A stretch of 64,000 nucleotides of DNA from Escherichia coli (GTDB lineage Bacteria; Pseudomonadota; Gammaproteobacteria; Enterobacterales; Enterobacteriaceae): the NCBI RefSeq assembly GCF_030384885.1, contig NZ_CP128613.1, one strand, 5' to 3'. Shown here one piece after another: positions 1,559 through 19,206 of this stretch. The translations under genes and the position numbers were made by a program. The notes beneath the pieces were generated by a model. The model saw only the letters and a list, made by a program, of their open reading frames with translations. It was not told the DNA's origin and did not search any database. The first letter of the stretch is position 1; the number at the start of each line of letters is the position of its first letter.

Positions 1559-2091
1559 ACCTAATATCCTTATATCCAGAAGTGGAGAGGTGCAAGATAA
1601 ATCAAAACACCATAATTACTGTTTGCAGAATAATTCCTTTCTGCCGGTCCGAAATGTGATCGTGGAGTCAATTCTGACGATGATCTGAAATAAGAATAAC
1701 GTCTGAACGGGTATAAGAAAATGCTTAAATCATCAAGTTTATATATTTTTACATTTCATTGATGAAATCAATGTAACTGCAATGAATTTTAATGATGATG
1801 CTTTTTGTATCTTGTTGATATTAATAGGGGGATTTGAATTCATGATGAAGCAATGATTTTTTAAAACGTTTTTTCATTTTTGCGATATGGCTCTCAGTAT
1901 ACGTGTTCTGTTAATTAATGAGCACGGTGATAATTAATGGCGAAATGAATGACGCTCATTTTCCACATCTTTGAGTTGCGGTTATTACACCATTTCAAAA
2001 ACTCAACGCCAGGTAATGCAGCCTATTGACTGGTTAAAAAGAAGACATCCCGCATGGGTACCAAAGACAACAAGGATTTCCAGGCTAATCT

Positions 2092-2230
2092 TATGGATTA
2101 ATCTGCTGCGTGCTCGGTGATTTGTCTGACAAATAAGCTTTTCCTTATGTCTTTTCCCGCTAAATTTATGCACGTTCTCACTGTAATTCTGCGATGTGAT
2201 ATTGCTCTCCTATGGAGAATTAATTTCTCG
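2092..2230. promoter_or_regulatory. Candidate araFGH control region with AraC half-site-like motifs
   Basis: TATGGATTAATCTGCTG at 2092-2108 fits the reverse complement of the AraC half-site pattern (nAGCn7TCCATA); a second TATGGA lies at 2211; exact operator positions not verified. Confidence 0.3.
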
Positions 2231-2354
2231 CTAAAACTATGTCAACACAGTCACTTATCTTTTAGTTAAAAGGTAATGCTTTGTTTTCCGATTAAATTAA
2301 CGAGAGTTATTCGTTTTTGCCCTACACAAAACGACACTAAAGCTGGAGAGAACC

Positions 2355-3344
2355 ATGCACAAATTTACTAAAGCCCTGGCAGCCATTGGTCTGGCAGCCG
2401 TTATGTCACAATCCGCTATGGCGGAGAACCTGAAGCTCGGTTTCCTGGTGAAGCAACCGGAAGAGCCGTGGTTCCAGACCGAATGGAAGTTTGCCGATAA
2501 AGCCGGGAAGGATTTAGGGTTTGAAGTTATTAAGATTGCCGTGCCGGATGGCGAAAAAACATTGAACGCTATCGACAGCCTGGCTGCCAGTGGCGCGAAA
2601 GGTTTCGTTATTTGTACTCCGGACCCGAAACTCGGCTCTGCCATCGTGGCGAAAGCGCGTGGCTACGATATGAAAGTCATTGCCGTGGATGACCAGTTTG
2701 TTAACGCCAAAGGCAAGCCAATGGATACCGTTCCGCTGGTGATGATGGCAGCGACCAAAATTGGCGAACGTCAGGGCCAGGAACTGTATAAAGAGATGCA
2801 GAAACGTGGCTGGGATGTCAAAGAAAGCGCGGTGATGGCGATTACCTCCAACGAACTGGATACGGCTCGTCGCCGTACTACGGGTTCTATGGATGCGCTG
2901 AAAGCTGCAGGATTCCCGGAAAAACAAATTTATCAGGTACCTACCAAATCTAACGACATCCCGGGGGCATTTGACGCTGCCAACTCAATGCTGGTTCAAC
3001 ATCCGGAAGTTAAACATTGGCTGATCGTCGGTATGAACGACAGCACCGTGCTGGGCGGCGTACGCGCGACGGAAGGTCAGGGCTTTAAAGCGGCCGATAT
3101 TATCGGTATCGGTATTAACGGTGTGGATGCGGTGAGCGAACTGTCTAAGGCACAGGCAACCGGCTTCTACGGATCACTGCTGCCAAGCCCGGATGTACAT
3201 GGTTATAAGTCCAGCGAAATGCTTTACAACTGGGTCGCAAAAGGTGTCGAACCGACCAAATTCACCGAAGTTACCGACGTGGTGCTGATCACGCGTGACA
3301 ACTTTAAAGAAGAACTGGAGAAAAAAGGGTTAGGCGGTAAGTAA
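2355..3344 (+). CDS. araF: L-arabinose ABC transporter periplasmic binding protein AraF
   Basis: 329-aa ORF MHKFTKALAAIGLAAVMSQSAMAENLKLGFLV... with signal peptide; matches remembered AraF; followed by araG and araH. Confidence 0.95.
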   Translation: MHKFTKALAAIGLAAVMSQSAMAENLKLGFLVKQPEEPWFQTEWKFADKAGKDLGFEVIKIAVPDGEKTLNAIDSLAASGAKGFVICTPDPKLGSAIVAKARGYDMKVIAVDDQFVNAKGKPMDTVPLVMMAATKIGERQGQELYKEMQKRGWDVKESAVMAITSNELDTARRRTTGSMDALKAAGFPEKQIYQVPTKSNDIPGAFDAANSMLVQHPEVKHWLIVGMNDSTVLGGVRATEGQGFKAADIIGIGINGVDAVSELSKAQATGFYGSLLPSPDVHGYKSSEMLYNWVAKGVEPTKFTEVTDVVLITRDNFKEELEKKGLGGK

Positions 3345-3413
3345 TCTGCCGAAAAAATTCCCCTCTGTATGATGCAGAGGGGGTGTGAACGACCAGTGAT
3401 TCTCGGAGACGTT

Positions 3414-4928
3414 ATGCAACAGTCTACCCCGTATCTCTCATTTCGCGGCATCGGTAAAACGTTTCCCGGCGTTAAGGCGCTGACGGATATTAGTTTTGAC
3501 TGCTATGCCGGTCAGGTTCATGCGTTGATGGGTGAAAATGGCGCAGGAAAATCAACTCTCTTAAAAATCCTCAGCGGCAACTATGCGCCAACCACGGGTT
3601 CTGTAGTGATTAATGGGCAGGAAATGTCCTTTTCCGACACAACCGCAGCACTTAACGCGCGTGTGGCGATTATTTACCAGGAACTGCATCTCGTGCCGGA
3701 AATGACCGTCGCGGAAAACATCTATCTCGGCCAGCTGCCGCATAAAGGCGGCATTGTGAATCGCTCATTGCTGAATTATGAGGCGGGTTTACAACTTAAA
3801 CATCTTGGTATGGATATTGACCCGGACACGCCGCTGAAATATCTCTCCATTGGTCAGTGGCAGATGGTTGAAATTGCCAAAGCGCTGGCGCGTAACGCCA
3901 AAATTATCGCCTTTGATGAGCCAACCAGCTCCCTCTCTGCCCGTGAAATCGACAATCTTTTCCGCGTTATTCGTGAACTGCGAAAAGAGGGGCGGGTGAT
4001 CTTATACGTTTCTCACCGTATGGAAGAAATATTTGCCCTCAGCGATGCCATCACCGTCTTTAAAGATGGGCGTTATGTCAAAACCTTTACTGATATGCAG
4101 CAGGTTGACCACGACGCCCTGGTGCAGGCGATGGTCGGGCGCGACATCGGCGATATCTACGGTTGGCAACCGCGTAGTTATGGCGAGGAGCGGCTGCGTC
4201 TTGATGCTGTGAAAGCACCAGGCGTGCGTACGCCAATAAGTCTGGCGGTTCGCAGTGGAGAAATTGTCGGTCTGTTTGGTCTGGTCGGGGCTGGGCGTAG
4301 CGAATTAATGAAAGGCATGTTTGGCGGTACGCAAATCACCGCCGGTCAGGTTTATATCGACCAACGGCCGATTGATATTCGTAAACCGAGCCACGCTATT
4401 GCCGCAGGCATGATGCTCTGCCCGGAAGATCGCAAAGCGGAAGGCATTATTCCTGTGCACTCCGTTCGCGACAATATCAACATCAGTGCCAGACGTAAAC
4501 ATGTGCTCGGCGGTTGTGTAATCAACAACGGTTGGGAAGAAAACAATGCGGATCACCATATTCGCTCGCTCAACATCAAAACGCCGGGCGCTGAGCAACT
4601 GATCATGAATCTCTCAGGCGGAAATCAGCAAAAAGCCATTCTGGGTCGCTGGTTATCGGAAGAGATGAAGGTCATTTTGCTGGATGAACCTACGCGCGGC
4701 ATTGATGTTGGTGCTAAGCATGAAATTTACAACGTGATTTATGCGCTGGCAGCGCAGGGCGTGGCGGTGCTGTTTGCCTCCAGCGACTTACCTGAAGTCC
4801 TCGGAGTTGCCGACCGGATTGTGGTGATGCGCGAAGGCGAAATCGCCGGTGAATTGTTACACGAGCAGGCAGATGAGCGTCAGGCATTAAGCCTTGCGAT
4901 GCCTAAAGTCAGCCAGGCAGTTGCCTGA
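3414..4928 (+). CDS. araG: L-arabinose ABC transporter ATP-binding protein AraG (504 aa)
   Basis: Track ORF 3369-4928 trimmed to the ATG at 3414 ([17 protein letters not shown]...) to give the 504-aa length of AraG; two ABC ATPase domains ([17 protein letters not shown]). Confidence 0.92.
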
Positions 4929-11458: not shown

Positions 11459-14350
<2,892 letters not shown>

Positions 14351-14370: not shown

Positions 14371-14874
14371 ATGACCGGTATGACGAATGTAACAAAGCTG
14401 GCCAGCGAGCCGTCAGGCCAGGAATTCCTGGTATTTACCCTTGGTGACGAAGAGTACGGTATTGATATTCTGAAAGTGCAGGAGATCCGTGGCTATGATC
14501 AGGTAACACGGATTGCGAACACGCCAGCGTTTATCAAAGGTGTCACTAATCTGCGCGGTGTTATTGTGCCGATTGTCGACTTACGAATTAAGTTCAGTCA
14601 GGTGGATGTGGACTATAACGACAACACAGTAGTTATCGTCCTGAATCTCGGGCAGCGGGTAGTCGGCATCGTGGTTGACGGCGTCTCAGATGTGCTTTCA
14701 TTGACGGCGGAGCAAATTCGTCCGGCACCGGAATTTGCCGTGACGCTTTCAACAGAATATCTCACTGGACTCGGCGCACTGGGCGACCGCATGTTGATTC
14801 TGGTGAACATTGAAAAACTGCTGAACAGTGAAGAGATGGCGCTGTTAGATAGCGCGGCGTCAGAAGTGGCGTAA
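14371..14874 (+). CDS. cheW: Chemotaxis coupling protein CheW (167 aa)
   Basis: [42 protein letters not shown]... matches remembered CheW. Confidence 0.95.
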
Positions 14875-14900: not shown

Positions 14901-14929
14901 AACCCGATGATCTGCGCATCGGGTTTTTT
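14901..14929 (+). terminator. Rho-independent terminator after cheW
   Basis: Stem aacccgatg/catcgggtt followed by a T-run. Confidence 0.8.
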
Positions 14930-14960
14930 ATGTCAATTTTGCGGTGGATGGCATCATTAA

Positions 14961-14987
14961 TAAAGTTTCCCTCCTTCTTGCCGATAA
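14961..14987 (+). promoter_or_regulatory. Sigma-28 (FliA) promoter of the tar-tap-cheRBYZ operon, TAAAGTTT-N11-GCCGATAA
   Basis: Exact match to the FliA consensus 32 nt upstream of the tar ATG. Confidence 0.85.
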
Positions 14988-15018
14988 CGAGATCAACTTG
15001 TTTTCAGGAAGGTGCCTT

Positions 15019-16680
15019 ATGATTAACCGTATCCGCGTAGTCACGCTGTTGGTAATGGTGCTGGGGGTATTCGCACTGTTACAACTTATTTCCGGCAGTC
15101 TGTTTTTTTCCTCCCTTCACCATAGCCAGAAGAGCTTTGTGGTTTCCAATCAATTACGGGAACAGCAGGGCGAGCTGACGTCAACCTGGGATTTAATGCT
15201 GCAAACGCGCATTAACCTGAGTCGATCAGCGGTGCGGATGATGATGGATTCCTCCAATCAACAAAGTAACGCCAAAGTTGAATTGCTCGATAGCGCCAGG
15301 AAAACTTTGGCCCAGGCCGCGACACATTATAAAAAATTCAAAAGCATGGCGCCGTTACCTGAAATGGTCGCTACCAGTCGTAATATTGATGAAAAATATA
15401 AAAACTATCACACAGCATTAACTGAACTGATTGATTATCTTGATTATGGCAATACTGGAGCTTATTTCGCTCAGCCAACCCAGGGAATGCAAAATGCAAT
15501 GGGCGAAGCGTTTGCTCAGTACGCCCTCAGCAGTGAAAAAATGTATCGCGATATCGTCACTGACAACGCAGATGATTATCGATTTGCCCAGTGGCAACTG
15601 GCGGTTATCGCGCTGGTGGTGGTAATGATTCTGCTGGTGGCGTGGTACGGCATTCGCCGTATGTTGCTTACACCGCTGGCAAAAATTATTGCTCATATTC
15701 GCGAAATCGCCGGTGGTAACCTGGCGAATACCCTGACCATTGATGGGCGCAGTGAAATGGGCGATCTGGCGCAGAGCGTCTCACATATGCAACGCTCTTT
15801 GACTGACACCGTCACTCATGTGCGCGAAGGCTCTGATGCCATCTATGCTGGCACCCGTGAAATTGCGGCGGGCAATACCGATCTTTCTTCCCGTACTGAA
15901 CAGCAAGCATCCGCGCTGGAAGAAACTGCCGCCAGCATGGAGCAGCTCACCGCGACAGTGAAGCAAAACGCCGATAACGCCCGCCAGGCCTCACAACTGG
16001 CGCAAAGTGCCTCCGACACCGCCCAGCATGGCGGCAAAGTGGTGGATGGTGTAGTGAAAACGATGCATGAGATCGCCGATAGTTCGAAGAAAATTGCCGA
16101 CATTATCAGCGTTATCGACGGTATTGCCTTCCAGACTAATATCCTCGCGCTGAATGCCGCTGTTGAAGCCGCGCGAGCGGGTGAACAAGGCCGTGGTTTT
16201 GCCGTGGTGGCGGGCGAAGTGCGTAATCTTGCCAGTCGCAGCGCCCAGGCGGCAAAAGAGATCAAAGCACTTATTGAAGACTCCGTTTCGCGCGTTGATA
16301 CCGGTTCGGTGCTGGTCGAAAGCGCCGGGGAAACAATGAACAATATCGTCAATGCTGTCACTCGCGTGACTGACATTATGGGCGAGATTGCATCGGCATC
16401 AGATGAACAGAGCCGCGGCATCGATCAAGTCGCATTGGCGGTTTCGGAAATGGATCGCGTCACGCAACAGAACGCATCGCTGGTGCAGGAATCAGCTGCT
16501 GCCGCCGCTGCGCTGGAAGAACAGGCCAGTCGTTTAACACAAGCGGTTTCTGCGTTCCATCTGGCAGCCAGCCCACTCACCAATAAAACGCAAACATCAT
16601 CTCGTCCTGCCAGTGAGCAACCACCGGCACAGCCACGACTGCGAATTGCTGAACAAGATCCAAACTGGGAAACATTTTAA
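15019..16680 (+). CDS. tar: Methyl-accepting chemotaxis protein II, Tar (aspartate/maltose; 553 aa)
   Basis: Track ORF trimmed to the ATG at 15019 ([22 protein letters not shown]...); HAMP and MCP signalling domains; C-terminal NWETF pentapeptide. Confidence 0.95.
15880..16480 (+). repeat. Paralogous MCP signalling-domain repeat, tar copy (approximate)
   Basis: Stretches of tar (e.g. from about 16090) are near-identical at nucleotide level to tap (from about 17790): aaaattgccgacattatcagcgttatcgacgg... Confidence 0.7.
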
Positions 16681-16725
16681 CGAGCATTGACTAACGCGGT
16701 CATTGCCGCCTGATGGGGAGCGTTG

Positions 16726-18327
16726 ATGTTTAATCGTATTCGAATTTCGACCACGCTGTTTTTAATTTTGATTCTCTGCGGGATCTTGCAGATTGGCAGT
16801 AACGGCATGTCTTTTTGGGCATTTCGCGATGATTTGCAACGATTGAATCAGGTCGAGCAGAGCAATCAGCAACGTGCGGCATTAGCGCAAACTCGGGCGG
16901 TGATGTTACAGGCCAGCACCGCGCTGAATAAAGCGGGCACTCTGACGGCGCTTAGCTATCCGGCAGATGACATTAAAACGTTGATGACGACGGCGCGCGC
17001 CAGTCTGACGCAATCCTCTACGTTATTTAAAAGTTTTATGGCGATGACTGCGGGCAACGAGCACGTCAGGGCGTTGCAAAAAGAGACGGAGAAAAGTTTT
17101 GCCCGCTGGCACAACGATCTCGAACATCAGGCGACCTGGCTTGAAAGTAATCAACTTTCGGATTTCCTCACTGCGCCGGTGCAGGAATCACAGAATGCGT
17201 TTGACGTTAACTTTGAGGCCTGGCAGCAGGAGATCAACCATGTGCTGGAAGCCGCCAGTGCGCAAAGCCAGCGTAACTATCAGATTTCGGCGCTGGTGTT
17301 TATCAGCATGATTATTGTTGCAGCGCTCTACATCAGCAGTGCGCTGTGGTGGACGCGCAAGATGATTGTTCAACCACTGGCCATCATCGGTAGCCATTTT
17401 GACAGCATTGCTGCGGGTAATCTGGCGCGTCCGATTGCGGTATATGGTCGCAATGAGATCACCGCCATTTTTGCCAGCCTGAAGACCATGCAGCAGGCTT
17501 TACGTGGGACGGTGAGTGATGTGCGTAAGGGAAGCCAGGAGATGCACATTGGTATCGCGGAGATTGTCGCAGGCAATAACGATCTCTCAAGTCGTACCGA
17601 ACAGCAGGCGGCATCGTTGTCACAAACGGCCGCCAGTATGGAGCAATTAACCGCCACGGTAGGGCAAAACGCCGATAACGCGCGACAGGCGTCGGAACTG
17701 GCAAAAAAAGCCGCCACAACGGCGCAGGCGGGGGGTGTCCAGGTCAGTACCATGACTCACACCATGCAGGAAATCGCCACCAGCTCGCAAAAAATTGGCG
17801 ACATTATCAGCGTTATCGACGGCATTGCTTTCCAGACCAATATTCTGGCGCTGAATGCGGCAGTGGAAGCGGCTCGCGCCGGAGAGCAGGGGCGTGGTTT
17901 TGCGGTAGTGGCAGGTGAAGTGCGCAATCTTGCCAGCCGTAGCGCCCAGGCGGCAAAAGAGATCAAAGGACTGATCGAAGAGTCTGTCAATCGTGTCCAG
18001 CAGGGTTCGAAACTGGTGAATAACGCCGCCGCGACCATGACCGATATTGTCAGTTCAGTAACCCGCGTGAACGACATTATGGGAGAAATTGCCTCGGCGT
18101 CGGAAGAACAACGGCGTGGGATTGAACAAGTTGCACAGGCTGTTAGCCAGATGGATCAGGTGACACAGCAGAACGCCTCGCTGGTAGAAGAAGCGGCGGC
18201 GGCAACGGAACAACTGGCGAACCAGGCTGACAATCTTTCGTCGCGCGTGGCGGCATTTACCCTTGAAGAACATGAAGTAGCAAGACATGAGTCGGCGCAG
18301 TTACAGATTGCGCCAGTGGTATCCTGA
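16726..18327 (+). CDS. tap: Methyl-accepting chemotaxis protein IV, Tap (dipeptide; 533 aa)
   Basis: MFNRIRISTTLFLILILCGILQIG...; MCP signalling domain; no NWETF tail; second of the tandem ATGs chosen. Confidence 0.93.
   Translation: MFNRIRISTTLFLILILCGILQIGSNGMSFWAFRDDLQRLNQVEQSNQQRAALAQTRAVMLQASTALNKAGTLTALSYPADDIKTLMTTARASLTQSSTLFKSFMAMTAGNEHVRALQKETEKSFARWHNDLEHQATWLESNQLSDFLTAPVQESQNAFDVNFEAWQQEINHVLEAASAQSQRNYQISALVFISMIIVAALYISSALWWTRKMIVQPLAIIGSHFDSIAAGNLARPIAVYGRNEITAIFASLKTMQQALRGTVSDVRKGSQEMHIGIAEIVAGNNDLSSRTEQQAASLSQTAASMEQLTATVGQNADNARQASELAKKAATTAQAGGVQVSTMTHTMQEIATSSQKIGDIISVIDGIAFQTNILALNAAVEAARAGEQGRGFAVVAGEVRNLASRSAQAAKEIKGLIEESVNRVQQGSKLVNNAAATMTDIVSSVTRVNDIMGEIASASEEQRRGIEQVAQAVSQMDQVTQQNASLVEEAAAATEQLANQADNLSSRVAAFTLEEHEVARHESAQLQIAPVVS
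17580..18190 (+). repeat. Paralogous MCP signalling-domain repeat, tap copy (approximate)
   Basis: See the tar copy; direct repeats about 1.7 kb apart. Confidence 0.7.
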
Positions 18328-18345
18328 AGTGATTGAGAAGGCGCT

Positions 18346-19206
18346 ATGACTTCATCTCTGCCCTGTGGGCAAACGTCTTTATTGTTACAGATGACCGAGC
18401 GCCTGGCGCTTTCCGACGCGCATTTTCGGCGGATAAGTCAATTGATCTATCAACGAGCCGGGATCGTCCTGGCCGACCATAAACGCGATATGGTCTACAA
18501 CCGATTAGTTCGTCGCTTGCGTTCGCTGGGACTGACAGATTTCGGCCATTACTTGAACTTGCTGGAATCTAATCAGCACAGCGGTGAGTGGCAGGCGTTT
18601 ATCAATTCGCTGACCACGAATCTGACAGCATTTTTCCGTGAGGCACACCATTTTCCTCTGCTCGCGGATCATGCCCGGCGTCGTTCTGGCGAGTATCGTG
18701 TATGGAGCGCGGCGGCTTCGACCGGCGAAGAACCGTACAGCATTGCGATGACACTGGCTGACACATTGGGCACCGCGCCCGGACGCTGGAAAGTGTTTGC
18801 CAGCGACATTGACACCGAAGTGCTGGAAAAAGCCAGAAGCGGTATTTATCGCCATGAAGAGTTGAAAAACCTGACGCCGCAGCAACTGCAGCGGTACTTC
18901 ATGCGGGGGACGGGACCGCATGAAGGATTGGTGCGTGTGCGTCAGGAGCTGGCGAACTATGTTGATTTTGCCCCGCTGAATTTACTGGCGAAACAATACA
19001 CCGTGCCGGGGCCGTTTGATGCGATCTTCTGTCGTAACGTCATGATCTACTTCGATCAAACTACCCAGCAGGAGATTTTGCGCCGCTTTGTTCCGCTCCT
19101 TAAACCCGACGGATTGCTGTTTGCGGGTCACTCTGAAAACTTTAGCCACCTTGAGCGCCGCTTCACGCTGCGTGGTCAGACGGTGTATGCGCTAAGTAAG
19201 GATTAA
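18346..19206 (+). CDS. cheR: Chemotaxis methyltransferase CheR (286 aa)
   Basis: [42 protein letters not shown]... matches remembered CheR. Confidence 0.95.

Follow-up and report, generated by a model that had tools for sequence, protein, structure and literature searches.

The chemoreceptor genes tar and tap of Escherichia coli are very probably old tandem paralogues which are held alike by constraint on the encoded proteins, which do not homogenise each other and which only very rarely undergo deletions of 1701 nt at short runs of identical DNA. The locus was analysed in a stretch of 64,000 nt of an E. coli genome (contig NZ_CP128613.1 of assembly GCF_030384885.1), called the window in the following, and all positions refer to this stretch. 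A sequence-only reading of this DNA had regarded the two genes as a substrate for gene conversion or for unequal recombination, with tar-tap hybrids or the loss of tap as outcomes. A survey of complete genomes bears out unequal recombination as a rare event, and speaks against gene conversion and against the repeat as the main route of tap loss. The repeat itself is a real, ordinary and long-known paralogy.

Organization of the tar/tap locus

Open reading frames together with the RefSeq annotation of an identical record identified the region as cheA-cheW-tar-tap-cheRBYZ. Over the 3.4 kb around tar and tap the sequence agrees at 100% with that of Escherichia coli strain 2013C-4282 (NZ_CP027579.1), against about 97% for other E. 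coli. A divergence of about 3% at this locus sets the window strain apart from nearly all complete genomes of the species. The genes cheA (12332-14350) and cheW (14371-14874) are followed by tar (15019-16680, plus strand), which encodes methyl-accepting chemotaxis protein II with 553 amino acids, and after an intergenic gap of only 45 nt by tap (16726-18327, plus strand), which encodes methyl-accepting chemotaxis protein IV with 533 amino acids. The gene cheR (18346-19206) and then cheB, cheY and cheZ are located downstream. For tar and tap these boundaries, taken from the open reading frames and the annotation, are the same as those read earlier from the sequence.

Both receptors pass their NCBIfam equivalog models, Tar NF011622 with 1191 bits (cut-off 900, residues 1-553) and Tap NF007309 with 1169 bits (cut-off 903, residues 1-533). 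Each protein contains TarH (PF02203), HAMP (PF00672) and MCPsignal (PF00015) in this order, all above the Pfam cut-offs. Tar ends with QDPNWETF and thus has the NWETF pentapeptide, whereas the C-terminus of Tap, QIAPVVS, is without this tail. NWETF is the tether for CheR and CheB in high-abundance receptors, and its absence marks the low-abundance receptor type. In the window itself both tar and tap are intact. Gene order, protein lengths and domains are the same as in the meche operon of K-12 (tar-tap-cheR-cheB-cheY-cheZ), and the signalling blocks of window and K-12 are 97.6% identical for tar and 96.1% for tap.

Upstream of tar, direct reading of the plus strand revealed at positions 14961-14987 a match to TAAAGTTT-N11-GCCGATAA, which we take to be the consensus of sigma-28 (FliA) promoters; such a promoter would drive tar-tap-cheRBYZ. 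On the minus strand long open reading frames extend over both signalling domains (15843-16421 and 17757-18077). These were rejected as genes and attributed to the alanine-rich, G+C-rich character of the coding strand.

Extent and degree of the direct repeat

The homologous signalling-domain blocks of tar (15859-16502, plus strand) and tap (17560-18203, plus strand) form direct repeats that are offset by 1701 nt throughout. The copies were delimited by BLAST, by an ungapped comparison and by a repeat search. BLAST aligned the blocks with 73.9% identity over 652 columns (E 2e-111), the repeat search returned two tar/tap blocks with 77% and 73% identity, and the ungapped comparison gave 470 matches in 644 positions (73.0%). 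A repeat in direct orientation at this place, about 1.7 kb apart and similar over about 600 nt, had been described from the sequence, and this part of the description is correct. It had further called the copies almost identical over roughly 200 nt from about 16090 and 17790, which overstates the nucleotide identity. Positions 16090-16289 and 17791-17990 agree in 168 of 200 nt (84%, 32 mismatches), and the windows of highest identity within the block reach 85% over 200 nt and 86% over 100 nt. Third codon positions account for 111 of the 174 mismatches in the block.

It is the protein that is identical. A core of 56 consecutive residues at the hairpin tip (DIISVIDG...AAKEIK), identified by comparison of the paralogues, does not differ between Tar and Tap and is almost unchanged in Tsr and Trg. 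Its tar copy is located at 16099-16266 and its tap copy at 17800-17967, both on the plus strand, and the 168 nt of DNA are 86.3% identical with synonymous differences only. The similarity of the two genes is thus far beyond chance, yet it is that of paralogues under constraint at the protein level.

Exact identity between the copies is confined to short runs. The longest run in the window strain, visible in the BLAST alignment, has 28 nt (16240-16267, with its tap partner at 17941-17968; plus strand), followed by a run of 24 nt (16098-16121, partner 17799-17822; plus strand); all others have at most 18 nt. A run of 18 nt is located at 15963-15980 on the plus strand (partner 17664-17681). The longest runs in K-12 tar and tap are 24, 18 and 16 nt, and the 28-nt run of the window strain is shorter in K-12.

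Divergence of the signalling domains

Gene conversion between the tandem copies, which would maintain or refresh their similarity in the manner of concerted evolution, was the alternative with the best prospects, and we nevertheless consider it very unlikely. The copies lie in tandem and direct orientation only 1.7 kb apart, an arrangement that favours such exchange. The divergence was determined in a codon alignment of the window tar and tap genes with K-12 tar, tap, tsr and trg, in which the signalling block comprises 615 nt. Over this block tar and tap are 72.8% identical with a dS of 1.49 and a dN of 0.17, and in the invariant core dN is 0 and dS 0.98. For comparison, the dS values of orthologues between window and K-12 are only 0.11-0.15. 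In two strains 3% apart the dS between tar and tap is about 1-1.5, and synonymous sites are saturated. The unlinked gene tsr resembles tar more closely than tap does, with 76.9% identity, a dS of 1.57 and likewise an exact run of 28 nt. Together with the saturation this indicates that being neighbours has not kept tar and tap alike.

Three details of the alignment could be read in favour of conversion. The proportion of synonymous differences (pS) is with 0.55 somewhat lower in the core than in the whole block (0.65). The 28-nt run is longer than the longest run in 98% of codon shuffles of the whole block (P = 0.02); when codons were shuffled inside the invariant core, however, its length was unremarkable (P = 0.12). 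Finally, two neighbouring tap variants of the window strain, equivalent to positions 16245 and 16251, match tar, but no tract-like clustering toward the paralogue was seen among the variants by which the window strain differs from K-12 and a B2 strain.

The same picture was obtained in the collection of 5,426 complete E. coli genomes. Since the window tap block seeds on tar in most genomes, counts of second places with this query were unsuitable, and bands of identity were used instead. The tap block gave 4,321 genomes with at least 95% identity and exactly three with 80-95%; for the tar block, 5,379 genomes reached at least 95%, the 90-95% band was empty and two genomes fell into the 80-90% band. 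The tar-tap hybrids described in the next section are 91.8% and 85.6% identical to the tap block and 76.1% and 82.8% identical to the tar block, so that these three genomes account for every intermediate record. Apart from them, the 80-95% bands contain no allele with a long conversion tract among 4,321 tap and 5,379 tar alleles, where the test registers tracts that lower the identity by more than about 1-2%, which in the diverged parts means a length of at least about 50 nt, and is blind to tracts shorter than about 50 nt or within the 86% identical core. The saturated dS, the closer relationship of tsr to tar and the lack of intermediate alleles other than the hybrids thus give no support to gene conversion, and protein-level constraint on old paralogues is the preferred explanation of the similarity.

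Natural tar-tap hybrids

Unequal recombination between the copies was detected with a fusion query of 600 nt, in which the tar-specific segment 15550-15849 was joined to the segment 18200-18499 from the 3' end of tap and cheR. The two pieces merge into one hit only when about 1.55-2.35 kb are missing between them. An in-register fusion was present in three of 5,386 complete E. coli genomes, each time with a span of exactly 1249 nt compared with about 2950 nt in the normal arrangement, which is the span predicted for an in-register deletion of 1701 nt. The carriers are ETEC4088 (pig, Belgium), ET474 (frog, China) and PEC389 (pig, Korea). Each of them contains between cheW and cheR a single in-frame gene of 1608 nt, annotated as 'tar', with exactly 1701 nt missing. 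The hybrids carry the C-terminus of Tap and are consequently without NWETF.

To locate the junctions all 205 sites that separate K-12 tar from tap were scored, and each hybrid showed one clean switch from tar-type to tap-type. In ETEC4088 the switch occurs between nt 944 and 963 of the hybrid gene, equivalent to 15962-15981 of the window tar gene, and falls into the 18-nt run at 15963-15980. In ET474 and PEC389, whose hybrid loci are identical, it occurs between nt 1079 and 1104 (window 16097-16122) and falls into the 24-nt run. The three hybrids therefore represent two independent crossovers, the second of which maps to the segment around 16090 and 17790 that had been singled out from the sequence. 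In genes of the K-12 type the junction of ETEC4088 occupies the second-longest and that of ET474 and PEC389 the longest interval of identity; for uniformly distributed crossovers the probability of both junctions being located there is about 0.002-0.005. This is suggestive but not conclusive of a preference of the crossovers for the longest identity runs, as a hotspot cannot be claimed firmly from only two events.

Exact copies of the two hybrid proteins are encoded on 28 and 71 contigs, and the index lists them in 58 and 140 blocks. Every hybrid contig that was inspected had the order cheW-hybrid-cheR. Against the Tar equivalog model the hybrids score 1004 and 1049 bits, above the cut-off of 900, and for this reason they are annotated as plain 'tar' and have remained unnoticed in genome annotation. 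Repeats can collapse during assembly, and the plain 'tar' annotation might be taken as a sign of such a collapse of two similar genes, but an artefact is hardly conceivable here, since copies with about 74% identity are far too diverged to collapse, the same hybrid locus occurs in two complete genomes whose hosts and countries of origin differ, the exact proteins recur on many contigs with conserved neighbours, and the junctions are clean and in frame. The hybrids are inherited alleles.

The reciprocal product, a duplication with a second tap sensing domain, was not found among 4,323 places with the tap sensing-domain region in 4,321 genomes; the two extra places are one split gene and one plasmid copy. 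A lack of this product is expected if such duplications are unstable, and it gives no positive support.

Loss of tap

The region of the tap sensing domain is present in 4,321 of the 5,426 genomes and absent in 1,105, about a fifth of the collection. These frequent losses, the existence of hybrids that remove tap and the documented absence of Tap from uropathogenic and B2 strains would agree with the repeat as the main route of tap loss in E. coli lineages. A query specific for one junction revealed, however, a shared tap-internal deletion of 1374 nt in 1,059 of these 1,105 genomes. This deletion joins window position of about 16852 to about 18226 at an imperfect microhomology GAAYCAGG, and it leaves tar at full length together with remnants of both ends of tap. 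ST131 is among its carriers. Its mechanism is independent of the tar/tap repeat. Among the other losses are an IS1-associated deletion that starts in tar and a deletion from motA to tap, and only three genomes contain tar-tap fusions. In this collection the numbers of the different junctions thus refute the repeat as the main route of tap loss, and for E. coli lineages in general we see next to no chance that it holds.

The loss of Tap (and Trg) in uropathogenic or phylogroup B2 E. coli was documented by Lane 2006 and Borziak 2013, according to the passages of PMC3559539 and PMC12623472 that cite them. The 1,059 genomes of our survey are affected at the same locus and with the same outcome for dipeptide sensing. 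The difference is that here the loss can be assigned to a single tap-internal deletion of 1374 nt, in which the tar/tap repeat is not involved.

Discussion

The homology of tar and tap has been described since the 1980s and entered the textbooks once the genes had been sequenced. Laboratory tar-tap fusion transducers were reportedly described by Slocum, Halden and Parkinson in 1987 (J Bacteriol 169:2938) and by Weerasuriya, Schneider and Manson in 1998 (J Bacteriol 180:914). Both papers appear in the reference list of PMC2229510. The natural hybrids have the same architecture as these fusions, with the 5' part of tar in frame with the 3' part of tap and with tap lost. Unlike the laboratory fusions they come from wild isolates (pig, frog), in which they would persist as lineages. 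In the full-text literature that was searched, whose coverage misses most of the relevant journals, no published report of natural tar-tap hybrids was found.

Taken together, the results are best explained by the following scheme. The two genes, members of the four-helix-bundle family of chemoreceptors, would have arisen as a tandem pair long ago, and the conserved domain for kinase control (signalling) is encoded in the 3' half of each. Purifying selection on this part of the protein would keep the DNA about 73% identical, and 86% identical in the invariant core, although synonymous sites have become saturated. The direct repeats contain a few exact runs with lengths of 18-28 nt, which just reach or slightly miss the minimum of identity for recombination in E. 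coli. In a run of this kind a very rare crossover or a slip during replication would delete exactly 1701 nt, and the product would be an in-frame gene with the sensing half of Tar and the signalling half and C-terminus of Tap.

Homologous recombination in E. coli is stated in PMC3758752 to need 23-90 bp of exact identity, depending on the pathway, and a passage in PMC8918686 gives the minimal identity as at most about 30 bp. Direct repeats with runs of 28 and 24 nt reach the minimum of about 23 bp, though only just. According to the same two sources mismatch repair rejects or aborts exchange between diverged partners. It is plausible that the runs of 24-28 nt are just long enough for exchange and that their mismatched flanks hold the rate very low. 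The limit which a minimal identity segment sets to the recombination of diverged repeats is ascribed to Shen & Huang 1986 where the subject is described in PMC3758752 and PMC8918686. Likewise, the junctions of the hybrids are located in the longest exact runs of a repeat with 73-86% identity; a difference to recombination of this type is that the run at one of the junctions has only 18 nt. A RecA-dependent exchange at a segment of minimal identity could produce the deletion, as could a RecA-independent slippage. As 18 nt is less than the usual 23-27 nt, slippage or a relaxed pathway fits the junction of ETEC4088 better than a classical RecBCD/RecA exchange, and slippage without RecA between direct repeats so close together may be a further contributor.

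Judged from the domains that were joined, cells with a hybrid receptor would sense aspartate and maltose, would show no dipeptide taxis and would have lost the NWETF tether for CheR and CheB. Adaptation of the hybrid would then probably depend on another receptor which bears NWETF.

The survey puts numbers on a poor recombination substrate, in which a repeat with 73-86% identity has led to two fusion events in more than 5,000 genomes, and it traces the widespread loss of tap in B2 and ST131 to one unrelated, tap-internal deletion. The hybrid receptors lie above the threshold at which the name Tar is given, hence they were overlooked by annotation. We tentatively suggest, as a possibility that still falls short of a likely one, that the hybrids are stable lineages in animal-associated E. 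coli, which arose by crossovers in runs of 18 and 24 nt and have been masked by the name 'tar'. If this is true, the hybrid junctions would provide a field measure of the minimal identity for chromosomal deletion in the wild. If the hybrids are indeed unreported and the lineages real, they would represent a natural experiment with a receptor without the NWETF tether, in cells without dipeptide taxis.

Natural Tar-Tap hybrid genes

In-frame hybrid genes that join the 5' part of tar to the 3' part of tap were found to occur naturally in three complete genomes and in dozens of further contigs. In the loci retrieved from the strains ETEC4088, ET474 and PEC389 (L008, L009 and L010) the hybrid gene lies at positions 1970-3577 in each case and corresponds to window 15019-18327 minus 1701 nt. 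The hybrids score above the NCBIfam cut-off for Tar and are annotated plainly as 'tar', and the C-terminal pentapeptide NWETF of Tar is missing from them.

The signalling block of tar (window 15880-16494) was also compared with the unlinked tsr gene of K-12 (L005, 1658-3313). Both share 76.9% identity and an exact run of 28 nt, and tsr is therefore as good a partner for ectopic recombination as tap. Recombination between tar and tsr could lead to inversions or large rearrangements, not to small deletions. Among the 5,426 complete E. coli genomes, plasmid-borne tar/tap-like places numbered one with the tap sensing domain as query and four with the tar block.

Sequence context of tar and tap

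Directly after cheW a hairpin followed by a T-run (window 14903-14930) resembles an intrinsic terminator. It is followed by a putative sigma-28 promoter upstream of tar, predicted from a consensus match (TAAAGTTT-N11-GCCGATAA, window 14961-14987). Long antisense ORFs on the minus strand extend across the signalling domains of tar (192 aa, window 15843-16421) and tap (106 aa, window 17757-18077); the most likely explanation is that they arise incidentally from the alanine-rich coding strand.

The tar-tap region of this strain (window 14944-18345) diverges by about 3% from that of almost all remaining complete E. coli, and an identity of at least 99% was reached only by its own record. For part of tar, MFDS1022581 and MFDS1019527 are relatives at 99.3%, a hint that the history of the locus is mosaic.

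Deletions at the locus

Individual strains carry other deletions. In PI24 (L016, 2661-4100) an in-frame internal deletion of 222 nt in the signalling domain shortens tar from 1662 to 1440 nt, and the adjoining tap is intact. In EC2001 (L015, 3840-4580) a deletion fused the beginning of motA to the final third of tap, with motB, cheA, cheW and tar gone. In 23CRST038 (L003, 5071-5974) tar is reduced to a stump that adjoins an IS1 element; the strain lacks tap, cheRBYZ and the flhBAE side, and its flhC contains an internal stop.

One common tap-internal deletion of 1374 nt (window about 16852 to 18226; L001 and L002, two retrieved loci, at 4281-4525) was detected in 1,059 of the 5,426 complete genomes, ST131 among them. 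An imperfect microhomology, GAAYCAGG, marks its junction. These genomes retain both ends of tap, so in terms of DNA Tap has not been 'completely lost'.
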